A stretch of 64,000 nt of DNA from Eledone cirrhosa (Eukaryota): contig OZ024740.1 in NCBI GenBank assembly GCA_964016885.1, positions 365,490,001-365,554,000 of the forward strand, read 5' to 3'. The notes under the pieces were generated by a model. It did not search any database. It saw only the letters and a program-made list of their open reading frames with translations, and had not been told where the DNA came from. Each line of letters starts with the position of its first letter. Within the stretch, counting starts at the first letter, position 1. Shown here in pieces: positions 24,262 to 56,682 of the stretch. The position numbers were made by a program, and so were the translations under genes.

Positions 24262-26274
24262 TCAGGTTATAAATTGGGTGTTGAGTTCTAGTCTATTATT
24301 GATTGGTGGTAGTGTTTTATCTATAATTAGTGCTTCCTTAATTCTAAGATTGCCGAGGTTTCTTTCCTTAGTTTCTATCCTAACTGTTATGGTTTTGTCG
24401 GTGTTTTTGCATTTAACTAGGTGTTTCTTAAATGAGGAAGCGTTAGTATTGAGGTGTTCTTTTATTCTTATGTGGAGTGGTCTGGTGGTGCTACCTACGT
24501 AGAAGTTGTTGCATTTGTCACACTCTAGTCTGTATACGACGTAAGCCTGGTGGCATAGGTCTGTGTCGTTGATGGGACAGTTGGCTAGTCTGCAGCAGTT
24601 GTCATGTCTGGTGGAGTGTCTCTTGGTCAGCCGTCCGCGCAGAAAAGGACCCGAGTGGGCCAGTTGGATATCCAGTCCCTCTCGTCTGATGGCTCTGCGG
24701 ATGGCTGTTGTTGTTTCTTCACTGAAGTGTGGGAGCTTCAGGAAGCAAGTGTTAGTGCCGCGGGTGTGGTGTCCTCTGTTCTTTCTGGCACGGTTTGTGG
24801 TGGATGTCGTGTATCCGTTCAGTTTGAGTACTTCCAGGAAATGTGTGGTGTGTGTGTCTCGGTCTCTAGCGTCGGTGCATTTGTTCCGGATACGTGCCAG
24901 TTCGTTCCTTATGTATCCGAACTTGGCACCGAGTGGGAGGGCCGATCTGAAATGTACGAACAGGTCCCTGCTGGCGGCTTTTTTATAGAAGCAGGTGTGG
25001 ATGTTGCTTTCCTCTGTTACCCTGAGTTGGAAGTCCAGTAGGGATAGGGATCCGCGGTCATCGGGGTGTTCCATGCTGAACTTTATACTGGCGTCCATGC
25101 TGGAGAATGTTGTGTATATTTTATCTGCCTCCTCACGGGATGATGTAAGGATGAGTATGTCATCTACATATCGGGTGAAGAAGGCATGGGAATGGCAGGT
25201 GTTGAGGGCTCGGCATTCTAGCTGGTTCATGTAGGTGATGGCCAGCAGGCCCGATAGGCTGGATCCCATGGGTAATCCTGTTGTCTGTCTGTATGTGTGG
25301 TGGTGGAAGGTGAAGTACGTGTTGTCTACTGTGAAGGACAAAAGCTGGTGTATGTCCGTCGGGTGGAGGCCGTAGCAGTGGATGTCCTCTGCGACCACGC
25401 AGTCCGTCAATAAATCGACAGCTGGATGAGCGGGGACTGTAGTGTAGAGGGAGACAACGTCGAGGCTAAAGGCGTATTTATTTAGTTTAAGTTGTTCTGG
25501 CTGGAGTTGGTGTAGTCTACGTATAACTTCGTCGGAGCTACTGACATGCCCGGGAAAGGTGGAGAGTAGAGGCTTGAGGACCTGGGAGAGGAGCCAGGAA
25601 ATTTTGTATAGGGGTCCTTCTATGCTAGAGACGATGGGTCTTATTTGCGTCTTAGTACTATTCTTGTGGGTCTTGATGAGGTGGTAGAAAGTGGGCAGTC
25701 TGCTATTTCTAGTGGTGTAGTTGAGCTTAACTTTATTTGGGAGTTGTCTTCTCCTACAGATATCGAACCAAATGGAGTTGGTCTGTTTTTCGATCTGGGC
25801 TGCAGTCATGTCCGGGATCACTGTGTATAATTCACTGTCGCTTAGGTGTTCAAAGGCTAGGTTATTGTATGTGGCTTGAGAGATGACGCAAAACTCTTTA
25901 CCTTTGTCGGATGGTAAGTATATAAGTTCCCTATTCCGTAGGTTCTTCAGGGCGAGTTGTTGTGTCCTGGAGAGGTTTGGGGCTATCTTCTTCTGTTTCC
26001 GTAAGATGTTAAATACGGAATGTTTTAGTCTCGAGAGTTTTTCTTCAAGCTCGCGGTTGGCAGGCGGTGGACAGAGTGGGCGATCTAGTTGGTATATCGG
26101 GAATCTGGGTTTGATGGATTCCGTGGTGTTGTTGTCGAGAGTCGATATCCATTTTAGTTGGTAGGCAGCCCGACAGAAATTCGTTTCTATGTCGAGCCAT
26201 AGTTTGTCGTCCAGTCTCTGTTTCAATATGAACTTGGGACCCAGGCTGAGGAGGTCTAATTCCTCTCGGGAGAG
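24262..26274 (-). CDS. PLE reverse transcriptase-GIY-YIG polyprotein (5'-truncated, open frame)
   Basis: DKG, IKTHK, RPIVS, SLDVVSLY, GLPMGS, RYVDD, VVY..C..C...YVGST.R.L..R..EH. The first ~23 aa of the listed 693-aa ORF come from the inverted junction. 3' UTR runs to about 23665. Confidence 0.95.
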   Translation of the reverse strand, partial: LSREELDLLSLGPKFILKQRLDDKLWLDIETNFCRAAYQLKWISTLDNNTTESIKPRFPIYQLDRPLCPPPANRELEEKLSRLKHSVFNILRKQKKIAPNLSRTQQLALKNLRNRELIYLPSDKGKEFCVISQATYNNLAFEHLSDSELYTVIPDMTAAQIEKQTNSIWFDICRRRQLPNKVKLNYTTRNSRLPTFYHLIKTHKNSTKTQIRPIVSSIEGPLYKISWLLSQVLKPLLSTFPGHVSSSDEVIRRLHQLQPEQLKLNKYAFSLDVVSLYTTVPAHPAVDLLTDCVVAEDIHCYGLHPTDIHQLLSFTVDNTYFTFHHHTYRQTTGLPMGSSLSGLLAITYMNQLECRALNTCHSHAFFTRYVDDILILTSSREEADKIYTTFSSMDASIKFSMEHPDDRGSLSLLDFQLRVTEESNIHTCFYKKAASRDLFVHFRSALPLGAKFGYIRNELARIRNKCTDARDRDTHTTHFLEVLKLNGYTTSTTNRARKNRGHHTRGTNTCFLKLPHFSEETTTAIRRAIRREGLDIQLAHSGPFLRGRLTKRHSTRHDNCCRLANCPINDTDLCHQAYVVYRLECDKCNNFYVGSTTRPLHIRIKEHLNTNASSFKKHLVKCKNTDKTITVRIETKERNLGNLRIKEALIIDKTLPPINNRLELNTQFIT

Positions 26275-26280
26275 GACTAT

Positions 26281-26763
26281 TTCCAGCCTTGTACCACAAC
26301 TCGCTGAAACCCCAGAACCTCTGTCCAGAGTCATCTCCGCCACTATAGACAGGTCATACCACCACCGCCGAGACTACGAGAAAATACGTCTAACGCAAAA
26401 ATTTCTCAAACTCAGGACGGCCAACTGTCTTAACAACATCCCAACTCTAAACACCAACAGAGGCGAACAAGACGGTACCAACACAGAACCTAGCGGCGCC
26501 TCGACCAACAACACACCTGACGCAAAACACCTCGTCACAGACTTGACAGGATCCCTCTCCCGAGAGGAATTATACCTCTTCAGACCTATTAGACCGACAC
26601 AGACCTATGCCACCAGGCTTACGTCGTATACAGACTAGAGTGTGACAAATGCAACAACTTCTACGTCGGTAGCACCACCAGACCACTCCACATAAGAATA
26701 AAAGAACACCTCAATACTAACGCTTCCTCATTTAAGAAACACCTAGTTAAATGCAAAAACACC
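26281..26763 (+). mobile_element. Inverted fragments of the same PLE (N-terminal piece, then duplicated GIY-YIG piece)
   Basis: The plus frame ends HLVTDLTGSLSREEL, overlapping LSREELDLLSLGPKF of the minus ORF. About 26595-26763 is the reverse complement of about 24400-24570. Confidence 0.88.
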
Positions 26764-27559: not shown

Positions 27560-27790
27560 ATAAGTATTAAGGATACTATTTATGGTTATGTATATAATAA
27601 AACATTTTATGGTTATATATTTTTCATATACAAACCCCAAATAGTGAAAGGTAGTCATTCATTACTATCTTATTACCAGTAAGATAAATAGCTCAATGTA
27701 ATAACATCAGTTGTTTTACAGAGCAGTTATATAGAGCAGTTATATAGTGCCGTACTAAGAGTGAGAAATGAAATTTCGTTTCATTCTATT

Positions 27791-27837
<47 letters not shown>

Positions 27838-30800
27838 TATAGAGATTACAATAATCAAAGTTCAGTTTAAATCATTTATTTGCTTACAATTGTTTCCTCC
27901 AAACCGAGGTTTGGATTCTTCGGAGCAGCTATTTAGTTATCTATAACATACTTGACCTCCTTTTCAACACAAGAGACATAAAAACATATGCATATATTGA
28001 CCCACAGTGGGTTGACATCCATCATAATGATATAGCATGGCAATTTACATATAAAGGTTAAAGGATTAAAATGAAAATAAAAATAAAAATAAAAATAAAA
28101 ATAAAAATAAAAATAAAAATAAAAATAAAAATAAAAATAAAAATAAAAATAAAAATAAAAATAAAAATAAAAATAAAAATAAAAATAAAAATAAAAATAA
28201 AAATAAAAATAAAAATAAAAATAAAAATAAAAATAAAAATAAAAATAAAAATAAAAATAAAAATAAAAATAAAAATAAAAATAAAAATAAAAATAAAAAT
28301 AAAAATAAAAATAAAAATAAAAATAAAACATTGGCAGTTTATGAAGATAAAGCAAGAGGAAAGTTTAGAGTAGTCAGTGTATGAAACAATCTCACGTGTA
28401 GCATGCACGCGTGTCTTATTTATACAGGATTAGAGTGCGGCAGATTGTTACTTGTAGAATCAGGCAGTTAAAGCAGGCAATCAATATTACCATGTGGGCC
28501 GTATTGTTAAATCATTTTTTCGCAAACATCATTTTTTCACCTTTGAAGACCAATTATGGACCCGCAAAGATACGCAAAACAACTTCGACATTACCATGAA
28601 GTCTAGTGACTCGGCGCAGGTCACTGATTTAGTCGGCCTATATTTACTTAACCAAATCCATAAGGACCTTCTTTACCTCAACGGTGGTTTGTACCGCGAC
28701 GATGCACTTCTACTTATAGATTATAAAAAAATCAATATAGAAAGAACTAGAAAACTATTGCACAAAACATTCAAAAACTATAACCTTAGTATTACCATGG
28801 ACAAAAACACTAAAAACGTCAACTTCCTAGATGCCACACTCTACCTAGACTCAATGATACACGCACCTTTCCACAAACCTAATGAAAAACTCATTTACGT
28901 AGATACCAAGTCTAACCACCCTAGATCTATATTAAATTCTATCTCTAGGGGAGTATCTAATAGAATCTCTAATCTATCCTATGACGTAAACATATTTAAC
29001 AAAAACTCGCAATATTATAATCAGGCATTAGCTAGATCAGGCCATAATATAGAGATCGAGTTCCTACCTACAAAAACGCATAGCTACAACATTATTTCGC
29101 ACAACATGTCCATGAGAAAATTTAGTAATAAGAATAGCAACCACACACACACTAATAGGGATGATACCAACAAAAGTAACCCACACCACAGAAATTACCA
29201 TAGTACCATAAAAGGAAACAAATCACCAGACATAAGAAACAGAAATAAAAGAAGAAATAATACATTTTTCAACCCTCCTTTCAATCTAAACGTCTCTACC
29301 AACCTACCTAGGGCTTTCTTCTTACTACTAGATAAAAACTTCCCATCCGGCCACAAGTACCATAGCCTTTTAAACAAAAACACTATTAAAATCTCATACT
29401 CTACTACGCCTAACTTAACATACCACATAGCTAGTAGCAATAAAAGAAAAATTAATTCTTACTTCCAACAAACTAAATCACAACAGACGATAAACCTTCA
29501 AAATAACATTATAACAACTAACCCTAATATCAATAGAAATAATAGTAATAGCACTAGTGTAAACAATAACGCTGAGAACGACAACCCACATAACCATAAC
29601 CCTATAGCTAACATCCAGACTTCTACACAGCATATTAACCGGCAGACTAACACCCAGAATAATTGTAACTGTAGATCAAATAGAACCTGCCCTTTAGATA
29701 AAAAATGCTTAACCAAGGATATCATATACTCATGCACAGTCACAACTAACAACCATTCTGAAACCTATATAGGCTCTACTTCTAACTGCTTCAAAACTAG
29801 ATACAATTCGCACCTCCACTCTTTCAAAAAACACAGTCTAGCCAACTTCACTTCACTATCTAGCTACATACACTATCTAAAAACTAAAAATAAACTATAT
29901 ACACTTAAATGGGAAGTGGTAGGTAATGCGACATCGTACAAACCACCTAATAAATTTTGTAACCTCTGTCTACTAGAGACCCATACTATCATCTTCTCTA
30001 ACCATAATCTCCTTAATAAAAAATCAGAAGTGTTCGCATCTTGCCAACACCGCTTCCGACACTCTTTCTAAAACTTTAAACCCTATATATAACAATGTCA
30101 GACTTGAACCCGTCACCACCTCTAGCAATCAGCATCAGTGGCACACCTTACACCTCATATCCACACCCATTTATACACTCTAACGCAAATAGTGGCACCC
30201 TTATAGTACCTTTTACCCTGGAGATACCCCCATGTACCTCTACTTCTGATATATTGGCCTTGAATTATTTGGACTACATTGCACAAATATATGATTAATG
30301 TAAACTGCAGGCACTGTATTGGTTGTGCTAACATAGTCCTGTGCATGGAGTGCCACCATAGGATAGATAGATGATTAAGTAATTAATTTATTATTAAAGG
30401 GACTATATACTCTATATGCTGAGTACAATGAATTATGTACAGGTGATATGTGAGTTAGGAGTTTCTGTATTGCTTGTTGGCCAGATTAGTGTCTTTCTAT
30501 GAGAGAATTGGTCTCCGGACCACCCTGGTGATATTTAAATTTGCCAAAGATTCAGACATATAATGACCCAGAGCTTACCGGGAGTCATATATAGTAATAA
30601 GAACCTGCTAGGTTCTGCGGGTGCACTACACTTACAAAGATCATTGATTTGGAGGTCTGACTCTTCTTATAGATTGTTCAGGTGTGGCACGCCATAATAG
30701 AAGGTAATCATCCTGATATGAACACCTTTAGTACTTCTTAATAGACTACACTGTAATTTATAGATAAGTAACTTAATTTATAAATTGGCTATAACCTCAT

Positions 30801-31745
30801 ATGATAGGGACTCACTTGAAACACCATTAATGTAATTTAAGATAATAAATTTAACTATGAAAATCAGCTAGTTACCCCCCCTTACGCATTAACTCCCCTT
30901 AGTCACACACACACTTCCGGAATATACAATGTCATCTCACACAACTAAAACATCCTGATCTATTAATCAAAGTAAGAAACGACAAGATATGGTTTATAAC
31001 TTGACTCTCCAGACACCCAATGCTGAATCATCGTGGATTGTGTGATAGACCTGTAGTCTATATATTGCGTTTCATGGATTGTGTGAGTGGTGATGTGTGC
31101 GAAGACAGTGGTGCTGTTTTGCCTATTTTATAATATGTTTTGTGATATGTTTGATATTTTTGATATTTTGGTGTTTCTCTACATTCGGGATTGTATATCA
31201 TGCAGGTGTATGCGAAAAAATGATTTAACAGTACGGCCCACATGATAATATTGATTGCCTGCTTTAACTGCCTGATTCTACAAGTAACAATCTGCCGCAC
31301 TCTAATCCTGTATAAATAAGACACGCGTGCATGCTACACGTGAGATTGTTTCATACACTGACTACTCTAAACTTTCCTCTTGCTTTATCTTCATAAACTG
31401 CCAATGTTTTATTTTTATTTTTATTTTTATTTTTATTTTTATTTTTATTTTTATTTTTATTTTTATTTTTATTTTTATTTTTATTTTTATTTTTATTTTC
31501 ATTTTAATCCTTTAACCTTTATATGTAAATTGCCATGCTATATCATTATGATGGATGTCAACCCACTGTGGGTCAATATATGCATATGTTTTTATATGTC
31601 TCTTGTGTTGAAAAGGAGGTCAAGTATGTTATAGATCACTAAATAGTTGCTCCGAAGAATCCAAACCTCGGTTTGGAGGAAACAATTGTAAGCAAATAAA
31701 TGATTTAAACTGAACTTTGATTATTGTAATCTCTATATAATTATA
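27560..31745 (+). mobile_element. Naiad-like PLE with inverted 3' arm (27560-28517 versus 31211-31805)
   Basis: Arms share the (ATAAAA)n tract and an HHR (31647-31695 plus, 27880-27928 minus): ttgct-CCGAAGA-a.tccaaacc.tc.ggtttgga.g-GAAAC-aatt-GTA-agcaa. Confidence 0.92.
28518..30071 (+). CDS. Naiad-like PLE RT (C-terminal half) plus GIY-YIG endonuclease
   Basis: FDITM, GGLYRDDAL, VNFLDATL, CNCR..CPL..CL..IIY, YIGST, CNLC, CQHR. The listed ORF start lies inside the inverted arm. Confidence 0.93.
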   Translation, partial: FRKHHFFTFEDQLWTRKDTQNNFDITMKSSDSAQVTDLVGLYLLNQIHKDLLYLNGGLYRDDALLLIDYKKINIERTRKLLHKTFKNYNLSITMDKNTKNVNFLDATLYLDSMIHAPFHKPNEKLIYVDTKSNHPRSILNSISRGVSNRISNLSYDVNIFNKNSQYYNQALARSGHNIEIEFLPTKTHSYNIISHNMSMRKFSNKNSNHTHTNRDDTNKSNPHHRNYHSTIKGNKSPDIRNRNKRRNNTFFNPPFNLNVSTNLPRAFFLLLDKNFPSGHKYHSLLNKNTIKISYSTTPNLTYHIASSNKRKINSYFQQTKSQQTINLQNNIITTNPNINRNNSNSTSVNNNAENDNPHNHNPIANIQTSTQHINRQTNTQNNCNCRSNRTCPLDKKCLTKDIIYSCTVTTNNHSETYIGSTSNCFKTRYNSHLHSFKKHSLANFTSLSSYIHYLKTKNKLYTLKWEVVGNATSYKPPNKFCNLCLLETHTIIFSNHNLLNKKSEVFASCQHRFRHSF

Positions 31746-31760
31746 TATATATATATATAT

Positions 31761-31885
31761 GGAATAGAATGAAACGAAATTTCATTTCTCACTCTTAGTA
31801 CGGTACTTACTTAAATGTAAGTATGTATGTATGTATACGTACATACATATATGTATACAGACGTACAGTAGTATGTATATATATA
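31761..31885 (-). mobile_element. Fragment of the 503-bp retrozyme-like family (45-bp copy also at 27747-27792, plus strand)
   Basis: Reverse complement of tactgtacgtctgtatacatatatg...catttaagtaagt.cc.tactaagagtgagaaatgaaatttcgttt. Confidence 0.88.
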
Positions 31886-37351: not shown

Positions 37352-38758
37352 AACGCGTAGATTACTTCCCTTGCTTTTATCGAGAATCTAATTGTAATAC
37401 GTGACGTATTCTATTCTATAGCGATTAGGTCTTCAAAATGTTTATTATAAACATACAGAATATTTTCGAATATTCTATGTCTATATTCACATATATATCG
37501 CTATTTCAGAGCATTTATTCCAATTTCTAATTTCTGCCGGACCGGCAACCGCTCTTTCAAACCAGTTCCTGTACACAGCTAAGTATTCTATAAGTCTCTA
37601 GCTGTGTCATTCTCGATAAAAGCACTGGATATGTAGTCCTGATGAATTCTAACAAGAATGAAACGCGTAGATTACTTCCCTTGCTTTTATCGAGAATCTA
37701 ATTGTAATACGTGACGTATTCTATTCTATAGCGATTAGGTCTTCAAAATGTTTATTATAAACATACAGAATATTTTCGAATATTCTATGTCTATATTCAC
37801 ATATATATCGCTATTTCAGAGCATTTATTCCAATTTCTAATTTCTGCCGGACCGGCAACCGCTCTTTCAAACCAGTTCCTGTACACAGCTAAGTATTCTA
37901 TAAGTCTCTAGCTGTGTCATTCTCGATAAAAGCACTGGATATGTAGTCCTGATGAATTCTAACAAGAATGAAACGCGTAGATTACTTCCCTTGCTTTTAT
38001 CGAGAATCTAATTGTAATACGTGACGTATTCTATTCTATAGCGATTAGGTCTTCAAAATGTTTATTATAAACATACAGAATATTTTCGAATATTCTATGT
38101 CTATATTCACATATATATCGCTATTTCAGAGCATTTATTCCAATTTCTAATTTCTGCCGGACCGGCAACCGCTCTTTCAAACCAGTTCCTGTACACAGCT
38201 AAGTATTCTATAAGTCTCTAGCTGTGTCATTCTCGATAAAAGCACTGGATATGTAGTCCTGATGAATTCTAACAAGAATGAAACGCGTAGATTACTTCCC
38301 TTGCTTTTATCGAGAATCTAATTGTAATACGTGACGTATTCTATTCTATAGCGATTAGGTCTTCAAAATGTTTATTATAAACATACAGAATATTTTCGAA
38401 TATTCTATGTCTATATTCACATATATATCGCTATTTCAGAGCATTTATTCCAATTTCTAATTTCTGCCGGACCGGCAACCGCTCTTTCAAACCAGTTCCT
38501 GTACACAGCTAAGTATTCTATAAGTCTCTAGCTGTGTCATTCTCGATAAAAGCACTGGATATGTAGTCCTGATGAATTCTAACAAGAATGAAACGCGTAG
38601 ATTACTTCCCTTGCTTTTATCGAGAATCTAATTGTAATACGTGACGTATTCTATTCTATAGCGATTAGGTCTTCAAAATGTTTATTATAAACATACAGAA
38701 TATTTTCGAATATTCTATGTCTATATTCACATATATATCGCTATTTCAGAGCATTTAT

Positions 38759-38764
<6 letters not shown>
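37352..38764 (+). mobile_element. Retrozyme-like tandem array: 4.55 copies of a 310-bp unit
   Basis: Exact period 310, apparently identical copies, TA-flanked. HHRs at 37633, 37943, 38253 and 38563. Confidence 0.94.
37633..37675 (+). ncRNA. Type I hammerhead ribozyme (310-bp unit)
   Basis: gtagtc-CTGATGA-attc.taacaa.gaat-GAAAC-gc-GTA^-gattac. Helix I is extended by attctcgataaaagca/tgcttttatcgagaat. Confidence 0.94.
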
Positions 38765-42752: not shown

Positions 42753-42931
42753 CTTAGTCTATATATGTTCAGCATTTATATGTATAACCACTTTTCCATG
42801 TTAATATCTCTTCTTCTTCAAAAGTTTATATATTATATAAACGCATTGAGCTATTCCTAAAAGCTGGCAATTACATTCTATAATTTTAATTCTCTACTGT
42901 CCTTTGATAATTGTTTATATAGTTCTACCTT

Positions 42932-42996
<65 letters not shown>

Positions 42997-43446
42997 TATA
43001 GTAAGGTGTATTATTGGTTGTGTCAAACGGTCCAATAAATTTTTGTTACCAATATTAAATTCTCCACGTTTTAGTATATCTCCAATTCCATTTATGGGAA
43101 CAGCTAGATGATGTAAAACGGAGTATTTGTATCAAATACTAACTGAGGACGATAGCAGTCGCCGTGTCTTGACTGCTTGATCTTCATATGAGGAACTAAA
43201 CTCTGTAGGTGAACACCGTTAATTTTCTCCCTCATATCAAGGATTTGAAGACAATTCATTTTCACATGACGAGATCAGTGATAATCGATCATGGCTACAC
43301 GCTCAATCTATCTCTTATTGAAACATGTTGAAACAATATTAATAACAACATTCGATTCGTTTGCAATTATGCAAACAAGCCTCAATTGTATAGCCATGTC
43401 AGTAGAATGAACACTTCATTCTTGCTCTTGTGTTGGCATGCGAACT

Positions 43447-43496
43447 GAACTGCAGACACTAATATTTCTGGGTATCACCCTTCATCAGTACAGTTC
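43447..43496 (-). ncRNA. Type I hammerhead ribozyme
   Basis: gaactgta-CTGATGA-a.ggg.tgata.ccc.a-GAAA-tattagt-GTC^-tgcagttc; 8-bp helix I. Confidence 0.82.
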
Positions 43497-43532
43497 ACTG
43501 GTCACCTGCCAAACTGTCAGAGCTAGTGAAAA

Positions 43533-43647
43533 TATATGCTATTTTTAAAAATACACAGTGACTGATCGGCTTGATTTGCATATTAGCAGACTGGTTGATC
43601 GGTCAGATCTGCATATTAGCAGATCCACTGATCAGCCGGATTTGCAT
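43533..43647 (-). promoter_or_regulatory. Triple octamer repeat (33-bp period) plus TATA upstream of HHR
   Basis: On the minus strand, ATGCAAAT at 43640-43647 and 43574-43581, ATGCAGAT at 43607-43614, TATA at 43533-43536. Confidence 0.55.
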
Positions 43648-43899
43648 ATCAGCAGACTGTACGATAAAGTTATTTTGTCTCTACCCACAACCTACTCCTA
43701 CACCTCAGTCACCTGCTTTTCGATTTTCTCACTACTATCAAACTCCTCAAGCTTAATTCTCTCCTTCATTCCACCTCCACGGTATCCCCCACTTCACCAG
43801 TACACACGCATGCATCCAACAAACACTCACCTCCCACCTTGCTTCTCCCATTTCTCAGCCGCCACGCGCACCTACAACACACCCTCTGAGGAGGGTTTG

Positions 43900-44800
43900 A
43901 TAACTCCGTATTAAACCCTCCTGACCCGAACTCCACCCCCATCAAACCCACAACCAGCCCACAACCTGTTGTCACTCTACCCACTGACCTTCCCTTCTCC
44001 GGATCTGAGCGCTCACTCCTCAGTCGAGGTCTGCATTTCATATCCCTAACATCTTCCGGCGATGAATTTCTGAACCACTCCGATGTCGAACGGTTTCTGC
44101 ACCGAACAAAATTGCAGGACCATTTTTATCGGAACATACCGGCTCCGAACAACTCTAGTCACTTTGATGAGCTGGATCGGGGACCATCACACTGGACGCC
44201 GCCCCCGGACAATTCAGTGCCATAGGCACGTTCGTTGACGCCTGCCATCTATATATATAAAACTGAGGATGTCTGTCTGTGTTTGTGTGAGTTTGAATCC
44301 CTAAAACTAGAGAAGCACCCAACCGACTGTTTTCAAACTTTACACGTGTAATACTTATGTTTCAGGGAGTGTTCTGAGCAAAACAATTTCAAATTTTCAA
44401 TGCCCTAGGGACCGCATCAAGCGATTTAGCGATCTCTTCTATAATTCTTAGTATTTCTTTTCATCGTCGCCGCATGCAATTGTCCAACTGAACTGGTTTC
44501 GGCTTTCCTGGACTCCATCCTTTAATCCCTGATATCCATCTTACCATCCCACATCTCTGACACTAACCACACCCTTTTTGACTTCTTTTTGACTCCTTCA
44601 TCTTCCAATCTGGTCTACCACTCCTTCTTGTCACACTCGATATCATGTCCCTCTATACAGTCATCCCCCCACGCCGAGGGCCTCATGGCCCTCCAGCATT
44701 TCCACGACCTTCGCCCATCGCCTCAACCTTCCCTTCAACCTTATCCACCTGACCGAACTGGTCCTCATCCGCAACCATATCTTTTTCTCGGGTGATGTAT
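43900..44800 (+). pseudogene. Decayed Neptune-like PLE RT, interrupted at 44249-44460
   Basis: VVTLPTDLPFSGSERSLLSRGLHFI; IVAACNCPTELVSAFLDSIL; TLDIMSLYTVIPHAEGL. Confidence 0.82.
44249..44460 (+). mobile_element. Helitron-like 5' fragment
   Basis: A|TCTATATATATAAAACTG followed by (GTCT)n; interrupts the PLE reading frame. Confidence 0.55.
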
Positions 44801-44829
44801 TTCGGTATGATATTAAAGAGAGCGGGGCC

Positions 44830-45583
44830 AGTTGAGGTGAAGTATGTGTTTCGTATCGTTGCTTGAGATGCGAGTTTGATGTTTGTAGAGGGGGGGGGGG
44901 GGGGACATGGGGACCAAGCCTTGGGTGGATTTTAAAGGTGATACCAACATCATTTAGTCAATATTGGTGGAATATTTTCCACATCATATAGATGATGTAG
45001 CGCTCACGGCGACGTTGGAGAGAGTAGAGTTGAGTTTTTCTAATCGACCCCAACAGTCAAGGCCTGTCATACCGCCTATCTTTTTATATAATTGACCTCT
45101 GGGTTGCTTCAATTTTCATAATACTTTGTTTCGTTTGAGGAGACCACAGTGAACAAGGGTATTCAAGCTGGAACTGGGAAATGGTTGAGTAGACTAGGAG
45201 GATGGTCTGAATTTATCTAGACCGGAAAATTCTGATAATCCAGGAATACATCCCGCGGGTCAAGTCAACTTTGATGTTTAAGCGAGTACTTCAGCTTAAG
45301 TTGTTAATAATTACTCCAAAGTCTCTAGTGTTATTTGAGGCATCGGTGGAAAAGAGTATGGTAACTTCAATGTATCCTCTTTTCCAAAGTGGATTAATTC
45401 AAATTTATCCTCGTTTAGTAGCATATTGTTTTTTGCTACCCATTGGATAACAGCAAGCAGATCTGATTGAAGGTCGTCCGGTCTCCCACTCCGTTGATGA
45501 CCTTCTGGGCCTTGGAATCATCTGCAAAAATCCTTATCTTGCTGTGCTTGATGACGTCTATAATGTTATTTATGTAAGGAGCT
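44830..45583 (-). pseudogene. CR1-like LINE RT 3' relic
   Basis: KIRIFADDSK; LQSDLLAVIQWVAKNNMLLNEDKFELIHFG; SLQRRRERY. Confidence 0.85.
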
Positions 45584-45664
45584 TAGATCTCACACACACA
45601 CACACGCGCACACACACATATATATATGAACAAATTCAGGACCTCGATGGCTGAGCTCCGACGT

Positions 45665-46859
45665 TTCTTTCTGTCGCTTAAAATTCCACACCTGGGCGAG
45701 AATACCACCAACGCTATCCGCAAGGCTATACGGAGGGAGGGCCTCGACATCCACCTGGCCCACTCGGGCCCCTCCCTGCGAAGATGGCTCTCTAGGAAAC
45801 CCGGGAAATCAACTGACGCGTGCTCCCTCAGAGACTGCCCGATGCGCCATGCGAACTGTTGCCTACGCACATACGTCGTGTATAAGATAGAATGTAACAA
45901 GTGCAACCAATACTATATAGGTAGCACAATCCGGCCGTTGCACATCCGGATCAAGGAACACACTAAAACCAGGGCCTCGTCTTTCCGGAAACACATAGCC
46001 AAATGCGGAAACAAAGACGGGAGGCCCATTGTCACAATTCTAGCGACAGAAAGAAACGTCGGCACATTACGTATCAAGGAAGCACTTTGGATCAAACGCC
46101 TAGGGCCACAGTTAAACAACCGATCCGAGAGAAGCGAAATGAGGTGGTTGGTTTAAGTTAACAAACGATGCAGCAACACACGCACACGCACAAGCGAGAC
46201 AGCAACACACGCACGCACACACACACAGTAGCATTCCACCATACGAACATACTACACTGCCAATACAGAGGAACAAGGCAACAACACACGCACACACACA
46301 CACAAACAAGCGAGACAACAACACACGCACACACACACACACACACAGTAACATTCACCAAACAGGCAGAGAATGGACTGACAGCTAGCGCCACCCCGCT
46401 CCTACAATTGAAAGAACTACTTCGGCCGCTGACCTCTGCGTGACCGACCCCATTTCACGCGCACGCGCGCTCTGCTGAATACCTCAGATATTCAAAACAA
46501 CGAACAGCGGAGGACACGTTTCGCACCTTTCCGAAAACAACCTCCCCCCCCCCCCTCGCAAAAACCCCCAGTTGATGGATGTGAATCCGAAATATATAGG
46601 GACAATTAAATCTCTCCTAAGGTAACTCTTTCTCGTGTTGTTATTTTTATTTTTATCCTTTACGCTCTTTCCTTCATTCCTCTACACGTTACAGTCTTAT
46701 ACACGCCACGCATCTCAACGTACACCCACTTACATCTCTCTCTCCACCACCGGATCTTGTTACCCGGAGATTTACCCATCTGCATTGTCGAGGCTTCCAA
46801 ACGACTTAAAGAAATTTACCTTATTATTCCACAATGCTTCAAGTAAACTTCAATACTCT

Positions 46860-48560: not shown

Positions 48561-50995
48561 ATACGATATTAAACAAATGGAAACTATATTTATAAAACCA
48601 TATTTATTTCATTATACATATTTCGGGGATACCATATTAAAAATATGGCATGCCTTCTTCAGATAAAATACAATATATAAACAGTTTTATAAATAATTTT
48701 GACGTACCATAAATATTGAGCAACCGTTATGTAGGAAGCCGGTTTGGTAGTGAGATGTTTATAAATATTTAGTGTTAAGCACAGTTAAAAAGAAGAAATG
48801 TATGTAAAGAAAAACAGAGAGAAATAGAGAGAGATAGGGGAGAGAGAAATAGTGAGGAGGTGAAAAAAGAGACGCAGCTGAAGGCAACAGATGAATAATA
48901 ATAATTCATCATACAAATTGAGAGATTTAGGAGGGAGGGAGTACTGTAATTATTTAGTTATAGTGTTAAGGACAGTTAGGGAGGAGACGGAGAGAAATAA
49001 AAAATGAAGAGAAAACAGAGAGAGAGAAAGATAGAGGTGGGGGAAAAAAGAAAGAGGTAGACCAAATAATAATAATTATATAGGGGGAGGTGAAAATCAA
49101 GAGAGAAATAGGAGAGAAATAAGAGAGAAACTTGAGAGGCAAAGTCAAAACAACAGATACATAGACTTCATCATATATAAAGAGGGAGGAGAAGAAAGAG
49201 CTATATCTAGAGAGAGGGATGATAGATTTACATCTTTACGTTATGTCCTATCAATTTGAATTATCAATTCATAGGAACTGGGTAATATGATGTAAATATC
49301 AATATTCATGAATGAGACATAGATATATAATGTGTGAAAATAATTTTGCTCAATAATGACCATATGTTTAGTTTTCGATGTACCAAAAACTGAGATAAAA
49401 CTTCAAAAAAAAAAAAAAAAACGGAAATATATAAGTATATACATACACATGCATATGCACTTTCCGGAAAAGGAAAGAAAGAGAGAAAGAGAAGGTCATC
49501 TCAAGTTCTAGTTGATATTATAGACATACCCATGACTTTACGTGATCAACTCTGTAATTTCTTGTTTCACAAAAAAAAAAAAAATTTTTTTCCCTTGTGT
49601 TATAAAAGATTTCACTATATATATATACATAAAAAATAAACGATTAATATTCTTGCCCTCACATACATGATTATCGTTCATGTATAGAATATTATGCATA
49701 TCTGTAACATATCCAGAACTATACCCACACATACATATAGATATATATGTATGCACACATACAGGTACATGGACAGATAAAATATACTCTGTAATCATTC
49801 CATATGCATATTAATACATATGGCCTTTGTACAGAGACAACCAGATATCAATATATCAGCACAGAGATATCAAAACGTTAAAATATTTTCATCACTCCCT
49901 AGGGTATCTCGGGCCACAAAAACACAGTATGCCCCTTATATCAACCACAGAAATCTACCCTTCCAATTTATCTGACAATATATTGCCAAGTTCATTAGAA
50001 GCAATCAGAATCAAAAAGCAAACAAAAAACCAAAAATTATTCAACAAAACTTATTTAGCAGAAATCATTTAAAGGATTTAGGAGACCCTGTTGTTCTACG
50101 GATGCTCTTATATTTAGTATAGAAGTTTATCTTGCGTAAAATTTATTCAATAGATTGGGAGCATCTACATTTTAGAGTAGTTTAATTACATCATTAGTTT
50201 ATATTTATGAAGAAGGTTTAAAAGAAAAAGTTGAAGGAATCGAAAGATTTATCGTCAGGTTTCATACATTAATTAAATATCTTAATTAATTATACTACAT
50301 TTTAAATTTATATTTATATTTAAACGTTGAGTTCAATCTATGTCTGCAGCAACTGAATAAATTGCTCCTTAAATTAAGGGAATTTTTGGATTTTAATATA
50401 AAGAATATCTCCTCCACACAGAGGTCACATGTCTCTTATTTCTCTCCTATTTCTCTCTTGATTTTCACCTCCCCCTATATAATTATTATTATTTGGTCTA
50501 CCTCTTTTTTTCGCCCTACCTCTATCTTTCTCTCTCTCTGTTTTCTCTTCATTTTTTATTTCTCTCCGTCTCCTCCCTAACTGTCCTTAACACTATAACT
50601 AAATAATTACAGTACTCCCTCCCTCCTAAATCTCTCAATTTGTATGATGAATTATTATTATTCATCTGTTGCCTTCAGCTGCGTCTCTTTTTTCACCTCC
50701 TCACTATTTCTCTCTCCCCTATCTCTCTCTATTTCTCTCTGTTTTTCTTTACATACATTTCTTCTTTTTAACTGTGCTTAACACTAAATATTTATAAACA
50801 TCTCACTACCAAACCGGCTTCCTACATAACGGTTGCTCAATATTTATGGTACGTCAAAATTATTTATAAAACTGTTTATATATTGTATTTTATCTGAAGA
50901 AGGCATGCCATATTTTTAATATGGTATCCCCGAAATATGTATAATGAAATAAATATGCTTTTATAAATATAGTTTCCATTTGTTTAATATCGTGT
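48561..50995. mobile_element. Divergent ~565-bp arms of a PLE-type 3' UTR (HHRs 48605-48670 minus, 50886-50951 plus)
   Basis: 48561-49126 is the reverse complement of 50431-50995. tattttat-CTGAAGA..GAAA-tatgt-ATA-atgaaata. Confidence 0.88.
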
Positions 50996-53066: not shown

Positions 53067-55223
53067 TTAATTGTAAGTTGTGATGTTGCTGTTCCACTCA
53101 TATTTTCTATTTAATTTTGGTTTTAATTCTTTTATGCTTACTGCCTCTGTAATTTGCCTAAACATTGCGTCTTTTCTGTGTGTGGATTCTATTTTTATTT
53201 CTATGTTCTCTAATCTACCCCTGTGTTCTATCTTAGCATGTTGGTAGAGCACAGATGATTCTTTATTATCTTGGAGGTCTCGCCAGTGTTCATTTATTCG
53301 TTCCCCTATACTACGAGCTGTCTCACATATGTACACTATATTTTTGTTTCTACATTGTCCTTCAGTACATCTTATGCTATACACTACATTTCTAGTTTTA
53401 CAGTTAATATGGGGGCTTATTTTACAGGTTATACATTTCTTATCTATACATGAGGGTCTTTGGAACGGGTATGTCTTGCTAATAAGTGTTTTTACGGAGG
53501 TACCTGGTCTTTCTACTATCTTAATATTGAGATTGTGTTTATTTAGGGCCCTTCTAAATTTGTAGGCTAGTTCGCCTCTAGGGGTTGTATTGATGAACAT
53601 TACACTCTGGTATTTATTGCTATCATACCATGAGTTTATTCTATTGGCCTTGTTCCTAGTTCTTTCTATTCTATTCCAAAATTTGCTCCTATACAAGGGG
53701 CAGGTCCCATTTATGTCATTATTTACCATTTTTTCCCATTTGGTTCTGGCTCCTTTATACACTCTGATTCTATCTCTCTGATTGTAGCCAGAGAACTGCA
53801 TACGGTGGATGAAGTGTTGTATGTGTCTCTCTAGTTCTTCGGGGTTGCACATGCGGGACACATTTCTCATCACCCGTACCAAATCCGCAATCAGTATGTT
53901 GATTTTGGTATGATCCGAAATGGCCGAGTTTCGGTGGATCAGATGTTTGGAAGTCATGGGTTTGGCATAATGGGAATGGAGGATTTGTTTTTTGTTGTTA
54001 ATGGTATCTAACCAGAGCTCTGTGTCTAGTACAGGTAATCGATGGTTGGGGTGTCTACTTGGGTAGTCTATAGTAACTCTAATGCTCTGGTGGATGGAGT
54101 TTGCTATTTGCTGGATGCTTTCCATTGTGTTTTTCTCTAGTTCCTGACTGTTCTTTAGTGGGGGTGTCTTAACTACGATGTTTATATCATCTACGTAGCG
54201 GGAGTACATTATCAGGGTTAAGCTGTCTTCTAATTGTTCTTTAAGTTTTTGTTTAAGTCTACTGTCCCACCATACCATGAATAAGTTAGCTATGTCGCCT
54301 GCAATGCTAACACCAATGGCTGCTCCTTCCTCTTGGGCATATGTTTTACCATTAAATTTGAACATATGTTCCTTAAGGGTTAATTTTATGCTGGCCCCTA
54401 CCGCATGTGCAATCATTTTCTTCAATTCATAGTGGTTTTCGGGTGTCCGTATGGCCCTGGCCCACCCGTTCCATCTATCTGTGTGGGTTTTCTTGGCCAT
54501 TGAGGTAATGGTAGGTGGTCTGCCTCTTGCTGGTCTTGTAGGGCACAGGTTGCTAAGGTCATAAGTGTCTAGGTAACTATTACTATGGGTAAGCTTAAGT
54601 AGAAGTCCCAGCTCACTGGTATCAATCCCACGGAACTCAACCTTGCTCTCGCTGATCATTTCTACGCATTTCTCCACAGCAAAATCCACGCCAATAGATG
54701 GATACAGGGACACAACATCCATACTGCCTATTATGCAGTTTGTTAGGTCCCCAGATCGGTTACCCGCGCCGATTCTGCTGAGGAGGTCCTCCGTGCTGTC
54801 ACATACATCTGGGGACATCTCAATGATGGGGTGTATGATCAGGGAGAGGAAGTAGGACAGTCTGTAGTTACTAGCAATGTTAGCCCCACAGACTGGCCGT
54901 GTTGGTGGTCCCGCGACAGGGTCCCAGCCCGTTTTATGGTCTTTTCGAAGCCCATACAACGCCGGCACGTCATTGTTCCAGGCCTGGAAGTTGTTGGCAG
55001 TCCTTTTGTTGGGCTGCATTATATTCGTCCACATCACCATATGGGCATTGAGGGCTTTTTCTCTATCCTCATGCTCCTGTGGTGTTACCTCTCTTGTGTT
55101 AGTGATGTGGGGTTGCATTGCCTGGATGTAGTTTGGCAGGCTGTCAACCGACATTCTGCCAGACTTGTCTGTTGGAAAACATGCTATCTCTCCATTACGC
55201 GAGCGCTGCATGAGCTTACGCAA
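53067..55223 (-). CDS. PLE reverse transcriptase-GIY-YIG polyprotein (5'-truncated; frame stays open to about 55332)
   Basis: TDKSG, KDHK, RPVC, MDVVSLYPSI, RYVDD, LPVLD, NVVY..C, YI(C)ETARS..ER..EH. Confidence 0.95.
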   Translation of the reverse strand: MRKLMQRSRNGEIACFPTDKSGRMSVDSLPNYIQAMQPHITNTREVTPQEHEDREKALNAHMVMWTNIMQPNKRTANNFQAWNNDVPALYGLRKDHKTGWDPVAGPPTRPVCGANIASNYRLSYFLSLIIHPIIEMSPDVCDSTEDLLSRIGAGNRSGDLTNCIIGSMDVVSLYPSIGVDFAVEKCVEMISESKVEFRGIDTSELGLLLKLTHSNSYLDTYDLSNLCPTRPARGRPPTITSMAKKTHTDRWNGWARAIRTPENHYELKKMIAHAVGASIKLTLKEHMFKFNGKTYAQEEGAAIGVSIAGDIANLFMVWWDSRLKQKLKEQLEDSLTLIMYSRYVDDINIVVKTPPLKNSQELEKNTMESIQQIANSIHQSIRVTIDYPSRHPNHRLPVLDTELWLDTINNKKQILHSHYAKPMTSKHLIHRNSAISDHTKINILIADLVRVMRNVSRMCNPEELERHIQHFIHRMQFSGYNQRDRIRVYKGARTKWEKMVNNDINGTCPLYRSKFWNRIERTRNKANRINSWYDSNKYQSVMFINTTPRGELAYKFRRALNKHNLNIKIVERPGTSVKTLISKTYPFQRPSCIDKKCITCKISPHINCKTRNVVYSIRCTEGQCRNKNIVYICETARSIGERINEHWRDLQDNKESSVLYQHAKIEHRGRLENIEIKIESTHRKDAMFRQITEAVSIKELKPKLNRKYEWNSNITTYN

Positions 55224-55334
55224 GCCATGTGCAGATTTTTCTCCCAGTTGCTGGGCCTCTATTCTATTATGCTTCTTGCTATACTGTTCTATAATATTTC
55301 TAAGTTCGGATTTAGCTATACTAAATTGTGCTAA

Positions 55335-55846
55335 GAGGCGAACTAGCCTACAAATTTAGAAGGGCCCTAAATAAACATAATCTCAATATTAAGATAGTAG
55401 AAAGACCAGGTACCTCCGTAAAAACACTTATTAGCAAGACATACCCGTTCCAAAGACCCTCATGTATAGATAAGAAATGTATAACCTGTAAAATAAGCCC
55501 CCATATTAACTGTAAAACTAGAAATGTAGTGTATAGCATAAGATGTACTGAAGGACAATGTAGAAACAAAAATATAGTGTACATAGGTGAGACAGCTCGT
55601 AGTATAGGGGAACGAATAAATGAACACTGGCGAGACCTCCAAGATAATAAAGAATCATCTGTGCTCTACCAACATGCTAAGATAGAACACAGGGGTAGAT
55701 TAGAGAACATAGAAATAAAAATAGAATCCACACACAGAAAAGACGCAATGTTTAGGCAAATTACAGAGGCAGTAAGCATAAAAGAATTAAAACCAAAATT
55801 AAATAGAAAATATGAGTGGAACAGCAACATCACAACTTACAATTAA
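55335..55846 (+). CDS. Inverted duplicate of the PLE GIY-YIG domain
   Basis: Identical to the C-terminus of 53067-55223 except YIG instead of YIC. Confidence 0.85.
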
Positions 55847-56298
55847 GGACAAAATGAAAACACACACAGGACAAAATGAAAACACACACACACATAGAAC
55901 AAACAACCAACCAACAATAAATAAATAAATAAATAAACAAATAGATAAATGAACACAAACACACACAGACACCCGGATGTGGCGCATGCGCAAACTGAGC
56001 ACACAACACACACACAGAAACAAAATGGCGTAGGATAGAAGAAAGGACAGGCACAGAAACAAAGAAAGGAATCCCCAGTCACTGAAGAGGTCACAGAATG
56101 TGTGACGAAAGGACTATGACTATATATAAACAACTATCTGGTTGTGGAACCAACCAACCAACCAGAAATTTATAAGTTTGTAAATTTGTAAATTTATAAA
56201 TTTATAAATATATAATAAATTGAAGTGAAAGCAACTGGTACGTGTGTTTCTTATTGGCAACATGACCCTCCCAAAGTATAACAATATATATATATATT

Positions 56299-56333
<35 letters not shown>

Positions 56334-56336
56334 ATT

Positions 56337-56397
<61 letters not shown>

Positions 56398-56682
56398 ATA
56401 ATAATATAATTGAAGACTAAAATCCAAAGAGGGCTCGATAAGGAAAATATATATCAAATATATACGAACCGTAGAGCAAATATTTATTAAAATAACAGAT
56501 TAAATTTTAAGCAAAGAAACGCTGCTTTCACCCTTCACGGGATCTTCTGAGTTTCAGAAGATCCCGTTAAGGGTGAAAGCAGCGATTGATTGCTTAAACT
56601 TTAATCTGTTATTTTAATAAATCTGTTATTTTAATAAATATATATATATATATATATATATAAATATATATATATATAAATA

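Follow-up and report, generated by a model that had tools for sequence, protein, structure and literature searches.

An octamer-rich repeat block, a TATA-like box and a hammerhead ribozyme that lie back-to-back with the remains of a PLE raise the question of whether these elements belong to that PLE or to a hammerhead repeat of another kind. The original prediction chose the former, reading the segment as the inverted pseudo-LTR of an autonomous PLE whose promoter may have given rise to two other hammerhead units. We examined the segment (the “arm,” minus strand, from about 43660 to 43000) within the window, meaning the whole 64,000-nucleotide stretch of DNA analyzed, which is AT-rich DNA of animal type, possibly molluscan and perhaps cephalopod, and dense in (TA)n; a simple pattern picks out 30 hammerhead cores in it, and pieces of PLE coding sequence occur at some ten places. 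The arm is a decayed retro-repeat that carries a hammerhead and a conserved octamer-TATA block, triplicated locally, and it abuts a Neptune-type relic. Its parts and those of the relic are as follows.

43627..43659, minus strand: 33-bp repeat unit 1, exact octamer at 43640-43647
43594..43626, minus strand: 33-bp repeat unit 2, one-mismatch octamer at 43607-43614
43561..43593, minus strand: 33-bp repeat unit 3, exact octamer at 43574-43581
43529..43536, minus strand: TATA-like box, starting 45 nt past the start of the last octamer
43433..43512, minus strand: type I hammerhead ribozyme, helices I-III, predicted fold
43001..43432, minus strand: stretch of about 430 nt downstream of the ribozyme, without homologue or detectable coding similarity
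42934..43000, unstranded: (TA)n tract (TRF), outer (3') arm end, likely insertion target
43660..43694, unstranded: head-to-head junction interval, without (TA)n
43695..44248, plus strand: Neptune-type PLE ORF relic, N-terminal region, frame open from 43668
44249..44462, unstranded: unrelated insert of about 215 nt, replacing about 125 codons (homologue residues 292-417 unmatched)
44463..44790, plus strand: Neptune-type RT fragment with a stop and frameshifts, element 3' end absent

Structure of the arm and of the adjoining relic

The three octamer-centered 33-bp repeats of the original prediction were confirmed at 43561-43659 (minus strand) by the TRF call (43559-43659: period 33, 3.1 copies, 72% matches, score 118), by pairwise identity and by octamer position. 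Units 1 and 3 are the closest pair (29/33 identical, compared with 23/33 for units 1 and 2 and 24/33 for units 2 and 3), which gives an A-B-A pattern, and the two flanking 33-mers are identical to the units at only 12-14 of 33 positions. The octamer sits mid-unit in every repeat, with minus-strand starts at 43647 (ATGCAAAT), 43614 (ATGCAGAT, one mismatch) and 43581 (ATGCAAAT), and conservation within the triplicated repeats is centered on this block. The suggestion that 33 bp corresponds to about three helical turns carries no weight: the period is 3.14 turns, an offset of 51 degrees per repeat, and by arithmetic about 29% of random periods (3/10.5) come as near to a whole turn. The period is uninformative about phasing, and the helical argument was rejected as evidence. 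Exact octamers are not over-represented in the window (five collapsed loci versus 3.7 sites expected). An apparent enrichment upstream of hammerheads (4/5 loci in 4.7% of the sequence, nominal P 2e-5) was likewise not counted as independent evidence, since homology links three of these four loci.

The TATA-like box and the hammerhead read toward the (TA)n at 42934-43000, as had been proposed. The ribozyme core starts at 43488 (minus strand), the core boxes CUGANGA, GAAA and NUH are present together with helices I-III, and cleavage is predicted after GUC at 43455; the 96-nt fold has a z of -3.08, with 0/200 shuffles equally good. Helix I, previously put at 8 bp, has 9 bp in the fold, including one G-U, and runs on into two distal stems, and helix III consists of 3 bp with a 4-nt loop within an imperfect 10-nt palindrome; these features identify a canonical type I hammerhead rather than a minimal one. 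Helix II has 4 bp, with an unpaired A-A mismatch at the closing positions 10.1-11.1, so this copy of the ribozyme is probably impaired. Rfam hammerhead models gave no match at gathering score in the whole window or at E 5 in 42900-43900, and the ribozymes of the three tandem or monomeric units described below likewise received no Rfam call at gathering score.

The (TA)n tract is the likely insertion target of the arm, and an insertion bias toward microsatellites is described for PLEs (PMC8557442, in part). No homologue of 43001..43432 was found in the window or in the Neptune-like loci introduced below, and protein coding was not detected anywhere in the arm by Pfam, homologue search or N-terminal profile. 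Pfam matched 0/9 of the short frames tested from a total of 13 (the other four being a 30-aa frame and three that extend into the TA tract), and no protein homologue was found for the longest frame, which is weak evidence. A plasmid blastn with the arm as query gave no match, and a sigma-70 scan was empty, the latter being irrelevant to the arm. The arm family is present as a single copy, with no tandem or second copy in the window. Two candidate similarities were set aside: one between the post-ribozyme stretch and the ribozyme family at 50894 (0-1/200 shuffles), given the many AT-rich comparisons and the fact that blastn sees none, and a short motif common to the arm 5' boundary and the 466-bp unit described below, which scored only 19. 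Elsewhere in the window, 11768-11969 (minus strand) holds an isolated 5S rRNA sequence followed by the tRNA-like head of a SINE-like repeat and adjoins (AC)n/(AT)n.

On the plus strand, PLE coding relics do diverge from the arm as predicted, but not from about 43900, since similarity begins by 43695. This point is position 131 of a profile of the relatives, so that the first ~130 positions are missing: the relic ORF is 5'-truncated by about 130 codons and starts no more than about 35 nt from repeat unit 1. The missing N-terminus was not found elsewhere in the window, from which the relic's own 3' end is also absent. Both the arm and the relic are decayed.

The relic was correctly described as Neptune-like, judging by RVT_1, the linker motif and the layout of its homologues. 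With 43890-44222 as query, a word-indexed protein search returned 150 candidates, none significant, and an exhaustive search returned 114 hits at E 0.001 or better. Three full-length homologues (897-924 aa, 35-45% identical to the relic) all have RVT_1 and the CX2-5CxxC linker, and one of the three has a C-terminal GIY-YIG by Pfam, below the cut-off. An RT, this linker and GIY-YIG at the C-terminus form the Neptune/Nematis layout in the excerpted text of PMC8557442, and the name Neptune here reflects domain order and linker, not a tree, Nematis having the same linker. Among seven frames near the relic, only a separate GIY-YIG at 45587-46153 passed Pfam; it shares 57% identity with the PLE at 24265-26589, belongs to another PLE family and does not represent the relic's own end. 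A LINE-like RT piece, read by eye, follows the relic on the minus strand. For comparison, a four-protein alignment scan of a prokaryotic genome collection yielded nine Neptune-like PLE loci (L001-L009), whose contigs, in bacterial species-representative assemblies, are most likely animal host contamination.

Kinship with other hammerhead units in the window

Three further hammerhead units bear on the identity of the arm.

13435..16897, plus strand: 503-bp tandem hammerhead array, 6.9 units, 99% identical, with a homologous cassette
18966..19476, plus strand: 466-bp hammerhead monomer with a 45-nt terminal direct repeat and a homologous cassette
37352-38764: 310-bp hammerhead array, 4.6 identical units, starting inside the ribozyme

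The stretch of the arm from its last octamer through the TATA-like box and the hammerhead (about 135 nt) shows collinear homology to the 503 and 466 units, which have one octamer 88 nt (each 503 unit) or 100 nt (466) upstream of the core; the 310 unit has no octamer. When the 130 nt upstream of the arm's core were aligned to the 503 unit, the score was 49 (shuffles 17.9+-3.1, 0/200 as good), and alignment to the 466 unit scored 35 (again 0/200). The signal persists with the octamers removed (0/300 and 2/300 shuffles for 503 and 466, respectively). The same 130 nt did not align to the 310 unit (70/200 shuffles) or to four of five other ribozyme loci (at least 58/200), the fifth, at 9085, being equaled by 6/200. 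A profile built from 503 and 466 alone, with rows taken from an alignment that had included the arm sequence, finds 43605-43470 at E 9.3e-7 as its best non-self match in the window and the nine Neptune-like loci. Blastn of 42901-45500 against the window gave no link to the 503 and 466 units.

Upstream identities among the arm, 503 and 466 are 68/110, 58/106 and 65/105. Within this region the octamer is invariant in 8/8 columns, compared with 37/97 (38%) of the other upstream columns (nominal p 4e-4, from three families), and four TATA columns are also invariant, with an octamer-to-TATA spacing of 43-45 nt. Unit 3 has its octamer at the place orthologous to that of the lone octamer in 503 and in 466, and the tail of unit 2 matches the stretch ahead of the single octamer in the 503 unit; thus, part of the repeat structure is older than the split. 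Downstream of the ribozyme, the arm has no clear similarity to 503 and 466 (90/200 and 9/200 shuffles). The three families thus share an old module of candidate promoter plus ribozyme, for which the alignment gives no direction of descent. The proposal that the 503 and 466 units derive from the octamer-TATA-hammerhead cassette therefore survives as homology and not as derivation, the resemblance being confined to promoter and ribozyme, at 55-62% identity, and directionless.

The ribozymes are also comparable in form, with helix I of 9, 7, 7 and 6 bp and helix III palindromes of 10, 6, 6 and 6 nt in the arm, 503, 466 and 310, respectively. The 503 unit has T-T where the arm has the A-A that closes helix II; throughout the seven ribozymes of the young 503 array (13563 and the six next units), helix II is apparently closed by T-T and not by G-C. 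Insertions of 503, 466 and 310 are flanked by (TA)n on either side (3/3), whereas the arm has it at one end only.

Several other repeats in the window may be noted. A hairpin-bearing 503-unit tail (90-91% identical) occurs at 27746-27791 and 31762-31885, at the outer ends of the inverted arms of one PLE, which hints at a non-Neptune partner for the 503 family or at shared targeting. A 498-bp unit at 6816-8651 is both tandem and inverted, 97-98% identical, and without a hammerhead core by the simple pattern. At 12204-12530, an exact octamer is followed 46 nt later by a TATATATAA box beside an inverted pair of long-helix-II hammerheads; the spacing is similar, yet the locus does not match the cassette profile. 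In a further family with long helix II, which falls outside the classifier used for minimal-type ribozymes, an exact octamer lies within 220 nt in 1/9 copies and is reversed.

Origin of the arm

On balance we favor, with modest confidence, the view that the arm is an old non-LTR retrozyme, present as a solo copy, that carries the octamer-TATA module and shares its clan with 503 and 466. The type of the ribozyme, its kinship and the octamer all point this way. Canonical type I ribozymes are reported to mark retrozymes and minimal ones PLEs (PMC7229834, PMC4209133, both in part), so the sizes of helices I and III in the arm, compared with those of the minimal Neptune ribozymes, support a retrozyme, as does the homology of its cassette to 503 and 466. 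Solo monomers are a recognized retrozyme class in the accessible part of bioRxiv 10.64898/2026.07.22.740005; the active form, with tandem units and at least two ribozymes, is seen in the 503 array and not in the arm within the window. The octamer is evidently not required in the wider group, as the related 310 retrozyme does without it. Further points count against a retrozyme: the single copy of the arm family in the window; the (TA)n at one end only, with the other end abutting a PLE ORF in the manner of a PLE inverted arm; and the A that follows the ribozyme core, as in 6/6 Neptune ribozymes. This A could just as well open a helix II of five positions, as happens in 310.

Tentatively, and with less confidence, the arm could instead be the inverted, 5'-truncated 3' UTR or pseudo-LTR of the adjacent Neptune, as originally proposed, in a lineage with an octamer-TATA promoter ahead of a canonical ribozyme; the 503/466 clan would then descend from such a pseudo-LTR. 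The geometry of the junction fits this. It lies within about 35 nt of the truncated start of the ORF; L001 has an inverted truncated arm within about 50 nt of its ORF, and in the window the PLE at 53124-55292 (minus strand) has one that starts at 55334. The outer arm end lies in (TA)n, as in L003, with inner (TA)n absent, and the arm and the relic are alike decayed. Further, inverted truncated copies are a described feature of PLEs (PMC8557442, in part), and Xenopus retrozymes are reported to derive from PLE pseudo-LTRs (bioRxiv 10.64898/2026.07.22.740005, in part).

It is the ribozyme and the octamer that fail to fit. A hammerhead stands beside PLE coding sequence in six of the nine Neptune-like loci (L001, L002, L003, L006, L007 and L008), and all six ribozymes are minimal, with helix I of 6, 4, 5, 4, 4 and 2 bp, a helix III palindrome of only 4 nt and an additional A following the core, unlike the canonical ribozyme of the arm. 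Exact octamers are absent from the 200 nt upstream of all six (a site with one mismatch occurs in one of them), and the eight hammerheads of minimal type in the window likewise lack an upstream octamer. In the arm, 496 nt separate the ribozyme from (TA)5, as against 39-251 nt for these eight, about 70 nt to the terminal (TA)n for L003 and, for L001, about 85 nt to the end of the element. Blastn found no similarity between the arm and L001-L009, although the loci are distant, and the one PLE promoter that has been dissected is internal and TATA-less (PMC2377424, in part). The hosts of L001-L009 are distant from this genome, so this lineage may have a Neptune promoter of its own. The pseudo-LTR proposal is thus supported by junction geometry and not by ribozyme type or octamer.

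Some other hammerheads and PLEs may be recorded here. Two octamers upstream of a hammerhead in L003 (5632, minus strand) fall at the end of another PLE's ORF and were dismissed as chance. The PLEs at 24265-26589 and 53124-55292 (both minus strand) have long, nearly uninterrupted reading frames, and each is accompanied by a truncated arm in inverted orientation (26596-26763 and 55334-56408, respectively). The hammerheads at 31652 (plus strand) and at 27923, 60442 and 11223 (minus strand) have CCGAAGA as first core box (U4-to-C), with 7 bp in helix II and a helix III palindrome of 8 nt; the PLE family that carries them may be Hydra-like.

A further alternative concerns function rather than descent. 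The octamer block may simply be inherited, without a promoter role, its triplication being neutral slippage and transcription being read-through. The absence of octamer over-representation in the window, the octamer-free 310 unit and the derivation of the conservation signal from only three homologous families all speak for this. We nevertheless consider it improbable, given the invariance of the octamer columns and of the TATA columns at their 43-45 nt spacing, and the concentration of conservation among the three repeats on the octamer block. Very improbable is a twin-priming-type inversion, in which the arm would be the flipped 5' portion of Neptune itself, comprising promoter, ribozyme and the initial ~130 codons: the arm's length fits the missing N-terminus and one minus frame just past the ribozyme weakly matches the N-terminal profile (2.8 bits, E 0.063), but 35/500 shuffles match equally well, and the sense strand of the arm has 17% C compared with 37-39% C in the relic.

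For the solo retrozyme copy that we favor, the relation to the neighboring Neptune can take two forms, co-insertion with Neptune cDNA or accidental adjacency, between which we divide our confidence about evenly. That one end lies in (TA)n and the other on a truncated ORF, as in L001 and the arm at 55334, favors an insertion link with Neptune. The junction and the kinship would be reconciled by co-copying of the retrozyme with Neptune cDNA, or, in a region dense in PLEs, by independent insertion or later deletion: the junction may record one insertion with a template switch, the other two being about equally possible. The Neptune-type PLE may be the element that copied the arm into the genome. 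In its most specific form, a speculative one that we consider rather unlikely, the locus would be a fossil chimera in which the Neptune RT switched between its own RNA and retrozyme RNA in one insertion, and the clan would carry a portable octamer-TATA promoter tunable by octamer copy number. If true, this would name the autonomous partner of an invertebrate retrozyme clan, and the portable promoter would be convergent with that of newt satellite 2 and would explain the strong tissue-wide expression reported for retrozymes.

A candidate promoter module and comparison with known systems

From its sequence we infer that the octamer-TATA module is an internal promoter, presumably bound by a POU factor. 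In the three families, 23-31 nt separate the start of the TATA-like box from the 5' edge of the distal stem of the ribozyme, which would put the transcript start near the ribozyme's own beginning. Within a tandem array, this RNA would read through the promoter of the next unit to the next ribozyme, double cleavage would free a monomer, a host ligase would circularize it, and a PLE reverse transcriptase/endonuclease would copy the circle into (TA)n, restoring the order of promoter before ribozyme. Circularization and PLE mobilization are steps of a cycle already proposed (PMC7229834, in part). The polymerase is probably Pol II and not Pol III, since T4-T7 runs, which act as Pol III terminators, occur in the unit that it would transcribe. 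The octamer enhancer of an snRNA-type promoter is present, but it is proximal; snRNA octamers usually lie about 200 nt upstream. In insects, the TATA box occupies positions 34-41 from the PSEA start (PMC1761439, in part); the PSE-equivalent stretch here has no ATTC-CAA by eye and is patchily conserved, the consensus being an insect one that may not be the host's. The triplication would represent an enhancer-like amplification of the octamer block in the arm family, possibly longer before 5' truncation. In the literature searched, which was mostly without subscription papers, we found no account of an invertebrate retrozyme with an octamer-TATA promoter.

Two questions about animal retrozymes are touched by these observations, namely what drives their strong transcription and which element mobilizes them. 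For the first, an octamer-TATA block that three related families conserve at 88-100 nt upstream of the ribozyme core is a concrete, mutable promoter candidate, and the useful lead is that the module is common to the arm and to the young 503 array, in which the promoter is directly testable. For the second, PLEs are named only as strong candidates for retrozyme mobilization in the available text of PMC7229834, and a retrozyme-Neptune junction, if recurrent genome-wide, would be direct evidence for the mobilizing partner. Should the arm prove to be a Neptune pseudo-LTR, it would instead represent a PLE with an upstream-type octamer-TATA promoter, unlike the TATA-less promoter of Penelope.

Among the systems closest to the arm are the metazoan non-LTR retrozymes (Cervera and de la Pena 2020, PMC7229834, in part), with which it shares a canonical type I hammerhead, a short non-coding unit of low GC, co-occurrence with PLEs, and homology to hammerheads arrayed in tandem within the window. 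The arm differs in being solo, decayed and about 660 nt long, compared with RNAs of 170-400 nt, and in its triplicated octamer block, an internal promoter not being described in the part of that work available. Neptune pseudo-LTRs and inverted arms (PMC8557442 and PMC4209133, in part; L001-L003 and L006-L008) resemble the arm in the head-to-head arrangement with a truncated ORF, the outer (TA)n, the hammerhead inside and the A after its core; their ribozymes differ in being minimal, with octamers in 0/6, and 70-85 nt from the element end where this is defined. In Drosophila virilis Penelope (Schostak 2008, PMC2377424, in part), a promoter also lies in a terminal repeat and is propagated by tandem formation, but that promoter is TATA-less, of DPE type and downstream of the start site, and the word “octamer” does not occur in the excerpted text.

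As regards the promoter itself, a precedent is newt satellite 2, a hammerhead repeat with its own internal promoter, reportedly of snRNA type and transcribed by Pol II (Coats, Zhang and Epstein 1994, PMID 7984420, cited in PMC2220036, in part). In the arm, which lies in an invertebrate-like genome, a TATA-like box stands 43-45 nt from the octamer start, and the two are likened by description only. The promoter of satellite 2 reportedly includes an octamer.
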